A stretch of DNA of 5,849 bases from a virus (taxonomy: Duplodnaviria > Heunggongvirae > Uroviricota > Caudoviricetes): positions 1 through 5,849 of IMG/VR virus record IMGVR_UViG_2541047926_000003; one strand, given 5' to 3'. The notes under the pieces were generated by a model. It saw only the letters and a program-made list of their open reading frames with translations, did not search any database and was not told where the DNA came from. This document shows positions 1 to 5,849 of this stretch, one piece after another (within the stretch, counting starts at the first letter, position 1; every line of letters starts with the position of its first letter). The position numbers were made by a program, and so were the translations under genes.

Positions 1-146
1 GCGAACCACTCCGGTGGCTCAACACCTTTGATGGGCGTAAAAACAGGTTCATCTTTGTTCAGGGCTCGCTTGCCGGGGTTTCCGGCCAGCGCCTTGCGCG
101 CCGTTGGCTTGGGGCGACGCCCGGAACGCCCCGCCGTTCCAGCCAT
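1..146 (-). CDS. Terminase small subunit, N-terminal part only (gene continues past the window start)
   Basis: Minus-strand ATG at 146-144 preceded by AGGAG (about 8 nt upstream). Translation MAGTAGRSGRRPKPTARKALAGNPGKRALNKDEPVFTPIKGVEPPEWF resembles, from memory, the N-termini of P27-family phage small terminase subunits (basic stretch, then GNPGKR). Position directly downstream of an HNH endonuclease fits HK97-like packaging modules. Not in the ORF track because it is truncated by the window edge. Confidence 0.65.
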   Translation of the reverse strand, partial: MAGTAGRSGRRPKPTARKALAGNPGKRALNKDEPVFTPIKGVEPPEWF

Positions 147-196
147 ATGCGGCACTCCTGGTTAAATTTCATTTTTCGCGGGTATAAAAAAACGAT

Positions 197-245
197 GGGG
201 CGGGCAGTCCGGAAGACGTCAGGTCACAGAGATTTGACCCGCCCC
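197..245. repeat. GC-rich inverted repeat GGGGCGGG (197-204) / CCCGCCCC (238-245) between the HNH and terminase genes; candidate cos element or intrinsic terminator
   Basis: Perfect 8-bp inverted repeat read directly; arms separated by 33 nt containing the palindromes GACGTC and TCCGGA. On the minus strand the 3' arm is followed 4 nt later by a run of seven T (A-run 186-192 on the + strand). Function is inferred from position only. Confidence 0.4.
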
Positions 246-271
246 TCCCCTCAGACAGTTGAGAGTTATTA

Positions 272-622
272 TCACTTAAGCCGTTCACGGGCCGTCTTCG
301 CCTTATGGCACGGCCAGCACAGACTCTGCAGATTGCAGTCAGCATCAGTGCCGCCATGCGCTTTAGGGATAATGTGGTCAACGGTTTTCGCCTCACGCAC
401 CACACCGGCACGCAGGCACAACTGGCACAGGCCTTTGTCACGCTTCAGCACACGCGCGCGGATAACGTCCCACTTCGAACCATAACCGCGCTGGTGTCGG
501 GACTGTCCAGGTTTGTACTGCTTCCAGCCTTCGCTTTTGTGGCTTTCGCAGTAGCCTGACGGGTCTGTGGTTGTAGAGCGGCAGCCGCGAACACGGCAGG
601 CTTTTGGGGTTCGTGAGGGCAT
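272..622 (-). CDS. HNH endonuclease (phage packaging-associated HNH family)
   Basis: 116-aa ORF with paired Cys motifs (CRVRGC, CQLC, CWPC) and an HNH signature (DHIIPKAHGG ... NLQSLCWPCHKAKT). ATG at 622-620, TGA at 274-272. Sits immediately upstream of the terminase small subunit, as in HK97-like phages. Confidence 0.85.
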   Translation of the reverse strand: MPSRTPKACRVRGCRSTTTDPSGYCESHKSEGWKQYKPGQSRHQRGYGSKWDVIRARVLKRDKGLCQLCLRAGVVREAKTVDHIIPKAHGGTDADCNLQSLCWPCHKAKTARERLK

Positions 623-797
623 TGCATAATACTCTTGGTTGGTTCACGTGCGATATGTGGCATCCTTTTCAGAATCGATGCGTACTCCACTACGGTTTTG
701 CCATAAAAACCTCAGGATTTTTTTGTTAGACAAATCGATAGTAAACGTTCAAATTTACAAGATATTAGCAACAAAATAGCCTCTACAAGGAATCAAT

Positions 798-1346
798 ATG
801 TTTGATTTTACTCATTTTGAAGAGTTGACTTTAGCATCCCATCAACCCGATAGAATAATGACTATAGTTCGGTCCCAAGATGACATTGGTATCTATCTCC
901 GCACTCACCTTTTGATTGAACAAATCTTGGAAGCTTGGATTATCTGTGCCTCTGGTAACAGGGATTTCTTCAGCGGTTTTGGCGAAAATATCAACATGGA
1001 TTTTGCCATTAAAGCTCAGCTTGCGATGAACTATGGGATGAGCTCAGAGCTAAACAAATTTATTCGAAGGTTCAACAACTTCAGAAACAAACGTTCACAT
1101 CAAATTAACAACTCTGACATCACTAACAGTGAGATTGACTCCTTAACAAGTCTAATGGAGCACGGTTACCCTGATAGCTTGACCCCCATTAGAGATTTTA
1201 AGCTTGGGGTTTACGGAGCAGAAACTAGGGTTGTAAGTTTCACGGGATCCTCTACAAGCTTACGCGATAAGCTCATTATGTTATTCGCTATGTTTTCCAT
1301 GAGGGTACATTACGAAGCAAAATGCTTAAGCACGCCACAGAGCTAG
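798..1346 (+). CDS. Hypothetical protein (cargo gene A), 182 aa, with an R-N-x3-H motif suggestive of a HEPN-type RNase
   Basis: ATG at 798 with AAGGA (787-791) 6 nt upstream; TAG at 1344-1346. AT-rich codon usage unlike the flanking phage genes. Motif R96-N-K-R-S-H101 (nt 1083-1100) follows a predicted helix (ELNKFIRRFNNF). No family recognised from memory. Confidence 0.6.
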   Translation: MFDFTHFEELTLASHQPDRIMTIVRSQDDIGIYLRTHLLIEQILEAWIICASGNRDFFSGFGENINMDFAIKAQLAMNYGMSSELNKFIRRFNNFRNKRSHQINNSDITNSEIDSLTSLMEHGYPDSLTPIRDFKLGVYGAETRVVSFTGSSTSLRDKLIMLFAMFSMRVHYEAKCLSTPQS

Positions 1347-1424
1347 GCTCTACTTTGATGCTCTAATAACATTCGATTATTTGCATTTCCTGTTGCATTA
1401 GCGACCTGCCATTGAGGAGTAAAA

Positions 1425-1985
1425 ATGATCCATACGGTACATTTTTTGACAGATGTTACAGTTGCCTCTGTAACTAATCTGATGGATGTCTGCTTAAAAG
1501 CAGTTTCAAATACTAATCAACCAGCAACAGAAATTAAGCTCTATATTTCCAGCAAAGGTGGAGATACAGTTTCAGGCTTTACTGCTTACAATTTTTTAAA
1601 GTCACTTGGTGTAAAGGTTACTACGCATAACCTCAGTAATGTTGAATCAATCGCAAACGTGATCTATATGGCTGGAGAAGTGCGAACTGCCAACCCACTT
1701 TCTCGCTTCCTTCTTCACCCACTGCATTGGGGGTTCGCCGCACCCAGCGCAGATCACCTACGATTGAGAGAATGGGCTTCATGCCTCGATGACGATCTAA
1801 ATCGATTTATTCAAATCATGGATATTGAAACAAAAAAGAAAAATCCAAGTGAGATTGCTGATTGGAAGGATTTGATCACTTCGGCAACCATCCTTCATCC
1901 CGGAAGGGCCTCCGAGTTGGGAATTGTTCATCAAGTCGAGGCTGCAACCATACCCACGGAATCGATCCGCTGGTGGGTACTTTAA
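1425..1985 (+). CDS. ClpP-like (S14/ClpP-fold) serine protease homologue (cargo gene B), 186 aa, N-terminally truncated relative to canonical ClpP
   Basis: ATG at 1425 with GAGGAG (1414-1419) 5 nt upstream; TAA at 1983-1985. Blocks align, from memory, with E. coli ClpP: LYISSKGGDTVSGFTAY vs LYINSPGGVITAGMSIY; THNLSNVESIANVIYMAG vs TICMGQAASMGAFLLTAG; SRFLLHPL vs SRVMIHQP. Candidate triad Ser75 (nt 1647-1649), His98 (1716-1718), Asp149 (1869-1871) has spacings 23 and 51, close to ClpP Ser97/His122/Asp171 (25 and 49). Confidence 0.75.
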   Translation: MIHTVHFLTDVTVASVTNLMDVCLKAVSNTNQPATEIKLYISSKGGDTVSGFTAYNFLKSLGVKVTTHNLSNVESIANVIYMAGEVRTANPLSRFLLHPLHWGFAAPSADHLRLREWASCLDDDLNRFIQIMDIETKKKNPSEIADWKDLITSATILHPGRASELGIVHQVEAATIPTESIRWWVL

Positions 1986-2006
1986 AATCATAATATTCAC
2001 CATAAT

Positions 2007-2034
2007 GCGGGCTTAGAAGCCCGCTCTTTTTTTC
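2007..2034 (+). terminator. Rho-independent terminator ending the + strand cargo transcript
   Basis: GCGGGCTT-AGAAGCCCGC hairpin (2007-2024) followed by TCTTTTTTTC (2025-2034), 22 nt after the gene B stop. The hairpin overlaps the last codons of the convergent Rz1 gene. Confidence 0.6.
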
Positions 2035-2270
2035 TCAGCCTGCCTGATATCAGCCTTATCCCGATTGCACTGGCCAAGTGCCGATAGCAGACTGACATTT
2101 AAATTAAGACTATTACCCCATGTCATATTATCCGGAATGTCAGGATAAGGCGTTTCAGCCGTCAGGCTTGCTGGCAACGGTACCGCCGGAATAGGCACGT
2201 AAACTGTTCGCGTACTTCCGCAACCGGTCAGCAGCGGCAGCAGGCACAGGACGTGAAGCACAATCATCAT
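2013..2270 (-). CDS. Rz1: o-spanin (Rz1-like outer-membrane lipoprotein), overlapped out of frame with Rz
   Basis: Inside the 141-aa track ORF 2013..2438, the segment from ATG-ATG at 2270-2265 reads MMIVLHVLCLLPLLTGCGSTRTVYVPIPAVPLPASLTAETPYPDIP...: hydrophobic signal, lipobox LLTGC, proline-rich mature region. Starts inside Rz in another frame and extends about 140 nt past the Rz stop. Exact start uncertain; an in-frame TTG at 2276-2274 is also possible. Confidence 0.55.
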   Translation of the reverse strand: MMIVLHVLCLLPLLTGCGSTRTVYVPIPAVPLPASLTAETPYPDIPDNMTWGNSLNLNVSLLSALGQCNRDKADIRQAEKKRAGF

Positions 2271-2547
2271 CCGCAACAGCCACTTTGATATCTTCCTGGG
2301 TTCTCTGTGACTCCAGTGTGATCTGCTGTTTTGCATGCTGGTTAGCCTCCAGAACTGTATTGACGATTTGCAGTGATTGCAGGACGTTATTGGTAATGGC
2401 AGTTGCTGATTCAGCATTTCGTACAGCCTCATCAGCACGTTTCTTTTCGTACTGATATTTGCTGTAGTAGTGGTTGGCAGACCAGATGAAAGAACCGATG
2501 ACAGTAAAGAAGAATGCAGCGATAACCAGCTTATAGCTCAACTTCAT
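2155..2547 (-). CDS. Rz: i-spanin (Rz-like inner-membrane spanin component)
   Basis: 130-aa ORF. N-terminal transmembrane segment (KLVIAAFFFTVIGSFIW), then a charged, helical-looking periplasmic region. Start ATG 2547-2545 overlaps the endolysin 3' end by 17 nt. Position right after holin and endolysin is the canonical lysis-cassette order. Confidence 0.7.
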   Translation of the reverse strand: MKLSYKLVIAAFFFTVIGSFIWSANHYYSKYQYEKKRADEAVRNAESATAITNNVLQSLQIVNTVLEANQHAKQQITLESQRTQEDIKVAVADDDCASRPVPAAAADRLRKYANSLRAYSGGTVASKPDG

Positions 2548-3007
2548 TTACCACCCCACCAGCCTCTTTAAACCGGGAAATCAGGTCACTGATTTTATGT
2601 TCATACTGACCATAACCTGCACCAGGTAACGACGCCCAGATATTGCTGCAACGATCGATAGCCTGACGGATATCACCGCGATCAATCATCGGTAAAGCGC
2701 CACGCTCTTTAATCTGCTGCAATGCCACAGCGTCTTGGCTTTTCGGAGAGAAGTCTTTCAGGCCAAGCTGCTTACGATAGGAATCCCACCAACGGGAAAG
2801 AAGCTGGTAGCGCCCGGCTGCTGTTGATTTGAGTTTTGGGTTTAGCGTGACAAGTTTGCGAGGGTGATCGGAGTAATCAGTAAATAGCTCTCCGCCTACA
2901 ATGACGTCATAACCATGATTTCTGGTTTTCTGCCGTCCGTTATCCGTTCCTTCTGACCATGCCACCATATCGAGGAAAGCCTTACGCTGAGGATTAAGAT
3001 TTTGCAT
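2531..3007 (-). CDS. R: Endolysin, lambda R-type lytic transglycosylase
   Basis: 158 aa, near-identical over most of its length to my memory of lambda R (…QRKAFLDM.AWSEGTDNGRQKTRNHGYDVIVGGELFTDYSDHPRKLVTLNPKLKST…), including the catalytic Glu in WSEGT. ATG at 3007-3005 overlaps the holin 3' end. Confidence 0.9.
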   Translation of the reverse strand: MQNLNPQRKAFLDMVAWSEGTDNGRQKTRNHGYDVIVGGELFTDYSDHPRKLVTLNPKLKSTAAGRYQLLSRWWDSYRKQLGLKDFSPKSQDAVALQQIKERGALPMIDRGDIRQAIDRCSNIWASLPGAGYGQYEHKISDLISRFKEAGGVVNEVEL

Positions 3008-3299
3008 TTTTCACCCCTGTCAGTCGTTCCCAGAAGTACGTCAGTGCAACCGAACCCATCGCACCACTAATCCCCGCTGTCGCGAGAATCATGTAAATAC
3101 TGAATCCACTTTCGATGCTGATCAGGCCACCAATAACACCGGTGAATCCTGATACCACTATCTGAGCCAGAGCATTTATCCAACTCCACGTTGCTTTACT
3201 CTGCTTCACATCTATCAGGTAGCGGACCAGACCGCCCCAACCTGCGATGATCAGCAAAACGAGCCAGAACGCTCCGGCAAGGCTCTCTTTTTCGTGCAT
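2994..3299 (-). CDS. Holin (about three predicted transmembrane segments)
   Basis: Track ORF 2994..3311 starts at a TTG (3311-3309); the first ATG is at 3299-3297 (MHEKESLAGAFWLVLLIIAGWGG…). Three hydrophobic stretches and a charged C-terminus (ERLTGVKNAKS). Lies directly upstream of and overlapping the endolysin gene. Start codon choice unresolved, and no clear SD before either candidate. Confidence 0.7.
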   Translation of the reverse strand: MHEKESLAGAFWLVLLIIAGWGGLVRYLIDVKQSKATWSWINALAQIVVSGFTGVIGGLISIESGFSIYMILATAGISGAMGSVALTYFWERLTGVKNAKS

Positions 3300-3413
3300 A
3301 TGAATAGCCAATGTTTCGCCGCCGACAAAAGGCCGGGACGTTAAATGTCAGAAATCAGGCTCACGGGGTAATTTAACGACAAAGCACGGAGTTGATGCTC
3401 CCCGCAAGCCTGG

Positions 3414-3439
3414 AATAAAAAAGCCAGCATGTAGCTGGC
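3414..3439 (-). terminator. tR'-like intrinsic terminator of the short late leader transcript (minus strand)
   Basis: Minus strand reads GCCAGC-TACAT-GCTGGC followed by TTTTTTATT (stem 3439-3423, T-run 3422-3414). Located about 180 nt downstream of the Q stop and about 100 nt upstream of the holin, matching the lambda pR'-6S RNA-tR' layout. Stem is only 6 bp. Confidence 0.4.
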
Positions 3440-3561
3440 AACAGAGGGTTAAGCAATATCAACTCAACAGCTGAAGACACCCTGGCTGGGGTAGGTTGGA
3501 AGGCTACTCACCGTCCAGAAACAGAAAAGCCCAAAGTTTTAAACCTCGGGCTTGAATTTGG

Positions 3562-3590
3562 ATTACTGCCAGTGCGTACAACATTGGCAA
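3562..3590 (-). promoter_or_regulatory. Candidate late promoter (pR'-like), where a Q antiterminator would be expected to act
   Basis: Minus strand TTGCCA (3590-3585), 17-nt spacer, AGTAAT (3567-3562), just downstream of the Q stop codon. Hexamers are imperfect; assignment rests mainly on position. Confidence 0.3.
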
Positions 3591-3620
3591 AATATCAGAT
3601 TTACACGAAATATATGCTTT

Positions 3621-4310
3621 TTAATCCAGTTTTGCAATACTTTGCTGTGAAAATGTCGTCTTTTGTTTTGAACGTGTTTTCGTTAAAAGCAATAAAGCTT
3701 GGCTATCAAGCTGTAGAAAAATGTGCTTCATTGCAACCCAGCGTTCAGTAAATGTCTCAGACCAGTTTTTTGATGTCACTCCCACCAGTGATGCCAGCTC
3801 CTGGTATTCATAGGTCTTACGCCCTGCCAGCTCGTTCTTCACATCCTGTGCCGCCAGCCAGATCAACTTCTTTAAGCGTTCCAGTGTCTTACTGGCAATT
3901 TTTCTTGTACCTAACAGAGCCTTAAACTCGTTCCATGCCCACTGCGTTACGGCAACCTGATGCTCCCAGCGAACACTTTCGCTGTAACTCCACAGCAACC
4001 ACGCTTTCTGGTGTTCTTCGAGAGACAGAACCGCGCGGCGCCATGAAGATGTTGAGAACTCAACCTGGCTGACCAGTGCAATGGATGAACCTTTTGCGTA
4101 CGACTGCTTACCGGAAATCGGCGGATTATCCAGCGTAATCATCCTGCCAGTTACCTCATCCAGAATGCGCGGCTTCTTTCGTTTGTATGTACCAGTATCA
4201 AATTGAGCATGCTCCAGCCAGGCTTCAAGCTGGCCTTTCGTTACTCCGCTCAAATCAGCGGTAGCCACCATGAGTTGCTCGCGAACATACTGTAAATATT
4301 GGATATTCAT
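3621..4310 (-). CDS. Putative late antiterminator (Q-like protein)
   Basis: 229-aa ORF, ATG at 4310-4308 with GAAAGGAG 7 nt upstream. Lies between the rusA-ylcG block and the late promoter and lysis cassette, the position Q occupies in lambdoid phages. No similarity to lambda Q recalled; the family assignment is positional and needs a profile search. Confidence 0.55.
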   Translation of the reverse strand: MNIQYLQYVREQLMVATADLSGVTKGQLEAWLEHAQFDTGTYKRKKPRILDEVTGRMITLDNPPISGKQSYAKGSSIALVSQVEFSTSSWRRAVLSLEEHQKAWLLWSYSESVRWEHQVAVTQWAWNEFKALLGTRKIASKTLERLKKLIWLAAQDVKNELAGRKTYEYQELASLVGVTSKNWSETFTERWVAMKHIFLQLDSQALLLLTKTRSKQKTTFSQQSIAKLD

Positions 4311-4447
4311 GCGGCAGCTCCTTTCAGTGTTTTGGCGTAATTCTTCAGTATTCGGTAATCGGTCAAAACAGAACCGGGAAAACGATATAAGCGCAGGCGC
4401 ACCCAGCGGCGGCGAAGACGTTCTGCCATATAAGACTCAAACATCAT
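4307..4447 (-). CDS. ylcG: YlcG-like small protein (46 aa)
   Basis: Absent from the ORF track (too short). Minus-strand ATG-ATG at 4447-4442, stop TGA at 4309-4307. Translation [46 protein letters not shown]. Start overlaps the rusA stop (ATGA) and stop overlaps the Q start (ATGA). Same size and rusA-ylcG-Q position as DLP12 ylcG. Confidence 0.6.
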
Positions 4448-4806
4448 TCATCTCCCAGTTCGGTGATGGTCAGCTCCAGCTTCCCACCTTTGGTAACGGG
4501 CATCTTCACAACGCGATAATCAACGACCTGAGCATCATCCAACCAGAAACCTGCTTTGGTGAGTGCGTCAAAAGCGGCCTTTTGTAGATTATCCAGGTCA
4601 CGGCGACGGCGATCCGGCATGTGACACTCAATGCGGATTTTCACTGGCATAGCCAGGCCGATATCCAGCATTGCGTTTTTAATGATTTGAGCGACGTTAT
4701 CGCGGTATGCCTGTCCCTCTGCGCTGACGTGCGTGCGCCCGCGATTATGCCGGTAGTAGCGGTTATTGCTCGGCGGCCAGGGTAGTGTGATGTGGTAAGT
4801 ATTCAC
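4444..4806 (-). CDS. rusA: Crossover junction endodeoxyribonuclease RusA (Holliday junction resolvase)
   Basis: From the GTG at 4806-4804 the product (V/M)[37 protein letters not shown]…[20 protein letters not shown] is 120 aa and matches my memory of E. coli RusA nearly residue for residue. The track ORF (4444..4869, 141 aa) is an upstream in-frame extension. GTG start overlaps the ybcO stop (GTGA). Confidence 0.9.
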
Positions 4807-5093
4807 GCCTTGATTACCCCCTCTTTCAGCCAGATAACCTGCGTTCTCGCCATACCTTCCAGCGCGCATTCTTTTGCGTACTCAGCATCGACAAAATGCG
4901 TGCGGCGGTCGATCTCATCGTGACAGGCAGAACATGCAATGGTGGCAATCAGGTCTGGCGGTTTGGTACCGGTGCCACACAATCCAGCCAGCCGGATATG
5001 TGCCAGTACAGACGTTTCAGAATTACCATTACATACGCCAGGGATTCTTACCTGGCATTCCCGACCACGCGCTGCTTTTCTCAAATCAGCCAT
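4803..5093 (-). CDS. ybcO: YbcO-like protein (DUF1364-type; putative nuclease)
   Basis: From ATG at 5093-5091 (AAGGAGG 4 nt upstream) the product [62 protein letters not shown]… is 96 aa, with Cys/His clusters. The track ORF starts at an upstream TTG (109 aa). Size, sequence and ninE-ybcO-rusA synteny match DLP12 ybcO as I recall it. Confidence 0.8.
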
Positions 5094-5256
5094 GATTCCT
5101 CCTTGCTGCCAGTCGCAACCATTTTTTATCAACCAGGCTGGCGGTATACCCTAGCAGTGTTGGTATTTCGGATGGCTTCAGCTCAGGCTTACGCTTACGA
5201 CGATTTGGTACTCTGTAGATGTGTCCGTTCATGACCCGAATAAGCGGTGTAGTCAT
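5086..5256 (-). CDS. ninE: NinE-like protein
   Basis: From ATG at 5256-5254 (AGGAGG 4 nt upstream) the product [56 protein letters not shown] is 56 aa; the basic KPxxKP…WLR pattern resembles lambda NinE as remembered. The track ORF (77 aa) is an upstream extension. Start overlaps the upstream gene's stop (TAATG). Confidence 0.65.
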   Translation of the reverse strand: MTTPLIRVMNGHIYRVPNRRKRKPELKPSEIPTLLGYTASLVDKKWLRLAARRNHG

Positions 5257-5711
5257 TACGCCTCCTGCTTGTCGCGCAGCAGCTGGAACTCGCAGCTCTG
5301 TGGAATAGTCAGGTGGCAACCAATATTCATCGCCCAGGCTTCAACCTTACACAGGAAGACATACATCTCTCCGGTATCAAGATCGGAGGTATGGCGTAAC
5401 GACTGGATAGTGGTGATATCACCGGTTACGACATCAACCAGGTCTTTGGTTTCATAACCGAGATATGTGTGTTTGAGAGCATCTTTTACCCAAGCTGGAG
5501 TGGCGAACGTTTTACCCCTGCTGATGAGGTATTCACTGATTTCGCTGTACCACATGTGGCTGAGTGCATTCTGGGAAAGACTGCGTCTCTCGCGCCACGG
5601 TTTAAGCATCATGCGAAAGCATTTTCCGTCCTCCAGATAAGGCTGGATCTGCTGACCGATAGCGGTGAAGTTACCGCGATGCAATTTGATGCCGTCTTGT
5701 GGGAGGTTCAC
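5256..5711 (-). CDS. ybcN: NinB/Orf-family protein (YbcN-like), 151 aa
   Basis: GTG start at 5711-5709 with GGAGGTG upstream and an in-frame TGA at 5717-5715 fixing the 5' limit. Contains [15 protein letters not shown], resembling the RNRSLDQNRKLW motif I recall in lambda NinB/Orf. Size and position upstream of ninE match DLP12 ybcN. Confidence 0.7.
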
Positions 5712-5849
5712 GCTTCACCTCCGCAGAGGTCAAACGCTGGATGCAAAAAATCGCAGGTGCATCTCTGCATCTGTGAAGGGAGAAGAGAGTTTGGATTGTA
5801 TGTGCGCATAAACGTCCCCGTTTAGCGCAGAAGTCACCGGAGTTGTTCA

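Follow-up and report, generated by a model that had tools for sequence, protein, structure and literature searches.

A Divergent HepS-Family HEPN Protein, Predicted To Be an RNase, Encoded at a Cargo Hot Spot of a Lambdoid Escherichia coli Prophage

HepS (STM14_3211), encoded by the Salmonella Typhimurium prophage Gifsy-1 (structures PDB 9oij and 9oik), is a 210-residue abortive-infection protein with a single HEPN domain; its family was characterized in January 2026 and has 393 published homologues (Sargen et al., Nature 2026; PMC13043305). Here, we report a computational analysis of gene A, an uncharacterized gene in a 5,849-nucleotide (nt) stretch of DNA (IMG/VR record IMGVR_UViG_2541047926_000003, positions 1 to 5,849; "the window" is this whole stretch) that represents the late region of a lambdoid Escherichia coli prophage, and compare its product, protein A, with HepS.

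HepS is a latent tetramer with two composite active sites, which open once the J tail-tip protein of a siphovirus binds its N- and C-terminal segments; the segment with S13 forms a composite beta-sheet with the J trigger peptide. Activated HepS cleaves the anticodon loops of tRNA-Thr, tRNA-Ile, and tRNA-Ser. Cleavage of RNA in vitro needs R100 and H105, chromosomal H105A abolishes defense, I107 and Y20 reposition the catalytic histidine (I107A abolishes activity), tetramer function needs F66, K78, and L83, and N101 and K71 were modeled as anticodon contacts. Overexpression of HepS was reported to be nontoxic, and hepS has no conserved partner gene; the criteria of that study were a stand-alone protein of ≤250 residues that has one HEPN domain and lacks a conserved partner (PMC13043305). 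In the same paper, Tha is described as a tail-activated, nonspecific prophage HEPN RNase repressed by its prophage, and as a system entirely different from HepS (PMC13043305).

The product of gene A is identical to WP_000459434.1, annotated "hypothetical protein" at a matching E. coli prophage locus (L001), and was assigned by PHROGs to phrog_5483 ("unknown function"). A preliminary description, made from the window's letters alone, had reported an RNxxxH motif typical of HEPN RNases at R96 to H101 (nt 1083 to 1100) of a 182-residue open reading frame, with the caution that six residues are weak evidence. The motif, RNKRSH, lies exactly there and is the sole Rx4-6H of the protein, and the caution was justified, since 20,000 shuffles of protein A gave RNxxxH in 2.4% and Rx4-6H in 71%. 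RNKRSH gains significance because it is conserved among homologues. R96, N97, R99, and H101 were invariant across 17 homologues with identity down to 43%, and a profile search of 1.84 billion representatives recovered 193 relatives; among 85 of these (∼20 to 85% identity), the arginine was kept in 83, the asparagine in 84, and the histidine in 84. RNxxxH was present in 158 of 164 retrieved family proteins (three of the six exceptions were fragments of 64 to 76 residues). The position of I103 was variable in the wider family of 85 relatives (I, L, V, H, and others). The ratio of nonsynonymous to synonymous substitution rates (dN/dS) of gene A was 0.10 to 0.16 against its 84 to 90% homologues, a value that marks it as genuine and maintained by purifying selection. 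P0087 and P0096, both full-length proteins of the wider family, have lysine in place of the catalytic arginine, and P0087 also has serine in place of the histidine; these may be inactivated or repurposed HEPN copies.

An AlphaFold2 model of protein A, built on the 17-sequence alignment, was confident (predicted local distance difference test [pLDDT] score, 88.3; predicted template modeling [TM] score, 0.86) and mostly helical, with seven helices and one beta-hairpin, in keeping with the helical character read earlier from the sequence; the motif forms the last residues of helix 83-101, whereas it had been supposed to begin a helix. Foldseek searches with this model placed four HepS chains on top (probability, 1.00; TM score, 0.57 to 0.59), and the model has the all-alpha HEPN core fold, with HepS as the closest structure. 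HepS was likewise the best PDB match of the 17-sequence profile (E value, 0.0037), and the 85-sequence profile matched it at an E value of 2.7e-14 over HepS residues 26 to 135 (chain numbering). The link was also recovered by hhalign of the 17-sequence alignment against a 54%-identical HepS homologue (E value, 2.3e-5) and through intermediates such as P0059, which matched both the A profile (5.6e-13) and HepS (1.4e-11). Scattered weak matches of family members fell on HEPN-type Pfam families (among them RiboL-PSP, Abi_2, Cthe2314, Apea, HepT, and Csm6_HEPN). An NCBIfam scan of protein A gave only a chance-level match to SlrR, and a tblastn search of the phage collection with a HepS fragment gave no match. 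Protein A thus adopts the HEPN fold and is a homologue of HepS, so that the HEPN assignment of the preliminary description was borne out by profile, fold, and motif conservation alike, with HepS first in both the profile and the Foldseek comparison; A is a divergent solo HEPN protein of the HepS family.

Two other HEPN-associated candidates were rejected. Abi_2 (PF07751), one of the families listed in the preliminary description, is HEPN and Abi associated and in this resembles A, which has a HEPN fold; the match was weak and local, joining A residues 33 to 102 to the motif-bearing C-terminal profile positions 116 to 179 of 184, and at 14.6 bits (E value, 0.042) fell short of the 25.6-bit gathering threshold. 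Weak Abi_2 matches occurred in only 6 of the 85 relatives, and Abi_2 proteins are typically much larger than A. A HepT/MNT toxin-antitoxin pair was set aside because no MNT nucleotidyltransferase gene was present in the window or in the gene tables of related loci; the structural similarity of A to HepT/MNT toxins (SO_3166, PDB 5yep; 7ae2) was far below its similarity to HepS.

For comparison by residue (Table 1), the full 210-residue HepS sequence was rebuilt from overlapping database fragments, and all residue numbers named in PMC13043305 fit it. By alignment, A and HepS share the catalytic machinery and the histidine-repositioning isoleucine and differ in the trigger-binding elements and one tRNA contact. 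The N-terminal start of A aligns with HepS D15, so that the S13 segment is absent, and its C-terminal tail, which varies within the family and was modeled at low pLDDT (53), is shorter by ∼7 residues. Since A is without the N-terminal segment and the K71 contact of HepS, it may have another trigger and another tRNA target. In other respects the two are alike: A has 182 residues, one domain, and no conserved same-strand neighbor in 46 loci outside the lineage of the window, as a solo protein would, and A and its homologues are prophage encoded. Gifsy-1 is a siphovirus, whereas the A-bearing prophage of L001 encodes a tail sheath and hence is not.

We consider it probable that A is a stand-alone HepS-family HEPN RNase that is made by the lysogen, held latent, activated by a phage protein, and able to abort infection. 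Gene A would then be a "moron," an accessory gene on the opposite strand, situated in a contractile-tailed lambdoid prophage where the lysis cassette gives way to the HNH/terminase genes. The lysogen would make its product as a latent oligomer with paired R96/H101 sites closed; a protein of the infecting phage, late in infection, would bind A and open these sites; opened A would cut tRNA anticodon loops or other RNA; and the cleavage would stop translation and abort the infection, to the benefit of the lysogens as a population and of the prophage that they carry. For A itself, RNase activity, a latent state, triggering by a phage protein, the RNA target, and the defense phenotype are all properties that we infer. 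The theme of a prophage HEPN RNase triggered by a phage tail protein is one that A would have in common with Tha. The contractile-tailed prophage that carries A in the E. coli genome examined would presumably not make a lambda-type J tail tip, and without a J of its own, self-triggering would not arise, if J is the trigger; phage phi80, a siphovirus that carries a homologue of A (gp52), is a counterpoint to this argument. The A clade, which takes in phi80 gp52 and at least some of whose host prophages are contractile tailed, could conceivably form a distinct HepS-like branch at the enterobacterial lysis-terminase hot spot, with a cue other than J, another tRNA set, or both, because the N-terminal trigger-binding strand and the K71 contact of HepS are missing from it; we put this forward as a tentative and rather doubtful extension. 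Less likely, A cotranscribed with the truncated Ser-His ClpP encoded by the adjacent gene B would be a new protease-coupled variant in the E. coli lineage.

Several points weigh against an activated HepS-like RNase. A and HepS are only ∼21 to 26% identical, a pairwise match that does not by itself reach significance in a database-wide search. The trigger-binding residues S13, D15, S202, and T203 of HepS have no clear equivalents in A by alignment, an absence that bears on the trigger of A and not on its homology with HepS. No family of PADLOC-DB v2.0.0, which dates from 2023 and so predates HepS, matched A or B at an E value of ≤10. A scan for sigma-70 consensus promoters found none, either ahead of A or in the A-B interval (a weak TTTACA-17-TAGCCT at 754 to 782, upstream of A, was seen by eye), so expression of A in the lysogen is putative. 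Finally, the second-best fold match of A was MtlR/YggD, and the HEPN fold includes noncatalytic proteins, so A might be a regulator or binding protein of MtlR/YggD type; we think this very improbable, given that the motif is conserved and that only HepS was found by sequence. It is also unlikely, if less so, that A serves as the toxin in a prophage-stabilizing toxin-antitoxin or addiction module, with a small open reading frame, an RNA, or B as an unrecognized antitoxin. No MNT or other conserved same-strand neighbor accompanied A in any locus examined, no Rfam family was matched, and the plus-strand open reading frame at 639 to 779 overlaps the opposite-strand terS coding sequence of the 84 to 90% homologues; moreover, an inhibitor is not needed in the HepS family, as HepS overexpression was reported to be nontoxic (PMC13043305).

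The preliminary description had also proposed that the RNase effector A is controlled or processed by the protease B, and an A-B pair in which the ClpP-like B activates, processes, or degrades A is the explanation to which we give the smallest chance of all. The two genes are 78 bp apart on the plus strand, B retains its catalytic Ser75 and His98, and the pair is conserved, at 98.8 to 99.9%, across 15 complete E. coli genomes as well as 6 IMG/VR contigs. The window scan found no terminator-like site between A and B, and the only one downstream of A follows B; cotranscription is therefore plausible here. However, when adjacency was counted over 60 loci (flanks of up to ∼5 to 6 kb, some ended by contig ends), B adjoined A in only 7, all of one E. 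coli prophage lineage with A 100% identical. Within the available flanks, B was absent from 46 loci with A at 34 to 90% identity, including the 90% and 84% homologues, and A was absent from all 7 of the B loci. The metagenomic prophage contig Ga0121678_100150 carries a homologue of each gene, with ∼14 kb between the two and each in a module of its own. In the gene tables, A homologues stand by themselves, opposite in strand, in the interval from the lysis genes to the small terminase, and B homologues stand by themselves either at this hot spot or flanked by tail genes. A conserved A-B operon was thus rejected because the pairing is not conserved, and its absence outside one lineage means that A and B are separate pieces of cargo occupying the same hot spot side by side, in agreement with the partnerless hepS (PMC13043305); adjacency within a prophage cargo hot spot is not enough to imply a functional pair. 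Of the earlier proposal, the HEPN-type RNase half is upheld as a prediction from sequence and model, and control or processing by B is not supported.

Gene B matched the Pfam family CLP_protease (2e-12), its Ser75 and His98 were invariant in 25 homologues, and dN/dS against its 78% homologue was uninformative in that synonymous sites were saturated. Its closest structure was PDB 9uxt (E value, 1.6e-32), PpClpP1 of Pseudomonas plecoglossicida, which is N-terminally truncated and of low activity (PMC12900304). Homologues of B (47 to 80% identity; loci L013 to L019) recur alone on the opposite strand in phages with their own prohead proteases, and one cluster of them, named for Klebsiella, has 206 member sequences. 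The "ClpP1 paralogue" of P. plecoglossicida may itself be prophage borne. A literature search for ClpP-like prophage defense found no report; B is an uncharacterized solo prophage cargo gene, possibly with a role as a defense or counterdefense factor.

Relatives of A were found in prophages of Citrobacter, Enterobacter, Kluyvera, and Erwinia. Phage phi80 gp52 (YP_007947985.1; L020, 1172 to 1786) is 34% identical to A and has the motif RNDLAH, and AGF88098.1 of Salmonella phage FSL SP-016 (L021, 3486 to 4031) is 37% identical and RNxxxH bearing; both are annotated as hypothetical, and both lie downstream of lysis genes on the strand opposite to their neighbors. Recognizable flanking late genes of A loci were on the opposite strand to A in every case. 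Upstream of A, ATGGCAAAACC corresponds to the beginning of the Terminase_2 small-subunit gene, which in the 84 to 90% loci (L007 and L010) directly adjoins A; we read this remnant as a scar, which indicates that A passed from one prophage to another with its upstream flank attached. Elsewhere at this hot spot, a colicin/pyocin immunity-type gene stands beside an A homologue (L005, 6632 to 6883) and a colicin-domain gene lies near a B homologue (L015, 1603 to 3045); varied cargo at the lysis-terminase hot spot fits a general landing site for accessory genes.

Every recognizable phage gene of the window is on the minus strand (Table 1), and genes A and B, on the plus strand, separate the lysis cassette from the HNH/terminase genes; an annotated twin locus has the HNH endonuclease, Rz/Rz1, endolysin, and holin genes in the same order. 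The AT-richness remarked on earlier was evident as a GC content of 36 to 41% across 600 to 1650, against 50 to 59% in the flanks. The A-B segment occurred in 15 of 5,426 complete E. coli genomes (∼0.3%), on the chromosome every time, and megablast of the region against 50,697 phage records gave no match. The prophage around this segment in E. coli strain LD91-1 has genes for a P27-type small terminase, an HK97-type prohead protease, and a tail sheath and is therefore contractile tailed. Rfam and tRNA scans of the window gave no match, including in a 300-bp noncoding stretch (3312 to 3620) between the holin and Q genes, which presumably holds the late promoter and terminator, in line with the phi80 annotation.

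Table 1. Features of the window and residues of protein A aligned with HepS
Feature	Position (nt)	Strand	Remarks
HNH endonuclease	272-622	minus	
ATGGCAAAACC, 5' remnant of another phage's small-terminase gene	690-703 (remnant, about 693-703)	minus	Stop almost directly after
Upstream region	690-797	plus	∼110 bp; conserved with 84-90% homologues of other prophages; travels with A
AAGGA Shine-Dalgarno sequence of gene A	787-791	plus	Read from sequence
Gene A	798-1346	plus	ATG start; 182 residues; one domain
A E41	918-920	plus	Helix 29-52; only residue invariant in 85/85 relatives; aligns with conserved E in second long helix of HepS
A F61			HepS F66; conserved
A M67			HepS K71; not conserved
A Q74			HepS K78; not conserved
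A Y79			HepS L83; hydrophobic retained
A R96-N97-K98-R99-S100-H101	1083-1100	plus	Predicted HEPN catalytic motif (R96, 1083-1085; H101, 1098-1100); R96, N97, and H101 align with R100, N101, and H105 of HepS R100-N101-K102-Y103-A104-H105; conserved
A I103	1104-1106	plus	HepS I107; invariant in close A family
Gene B	1425-1985	plus	N-terminally truncated ClpP-type serine protease; 186 residues; S75 and H98
GC-rich hairpin and T-run	2007-2034	plus	Only terminator-like site downstream of A; after B
Rz/Rz1-type spanins	2013-2547	minus	
Endolysin	2531-3007	minus	
Holin	2994-3311	minus	
Q antiterminator	3621-4310	minus	From translation as read by analyst
RusA	4444-4869	minus	From translation as read by analyst
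NinB-like gene	5256-5711	minus	From translation as read by analyst

These results provide a predicted function for the "hypothetical protein" WP_000459434.1 and for phrog_5483, and they extend the HepS family to a divergent branch at a different prophage hot spot and in a contractile-tailed prophage. Points of interest are the possibly different trigger and target of A and the recurrent solo truncated-ClpP cargo next door. The differences between A and HepS at the trigger-binding ends and at a modeled tRNA contact offer a natural comparison for how solo HEPN sensors may choose their triggers and tRNAs.
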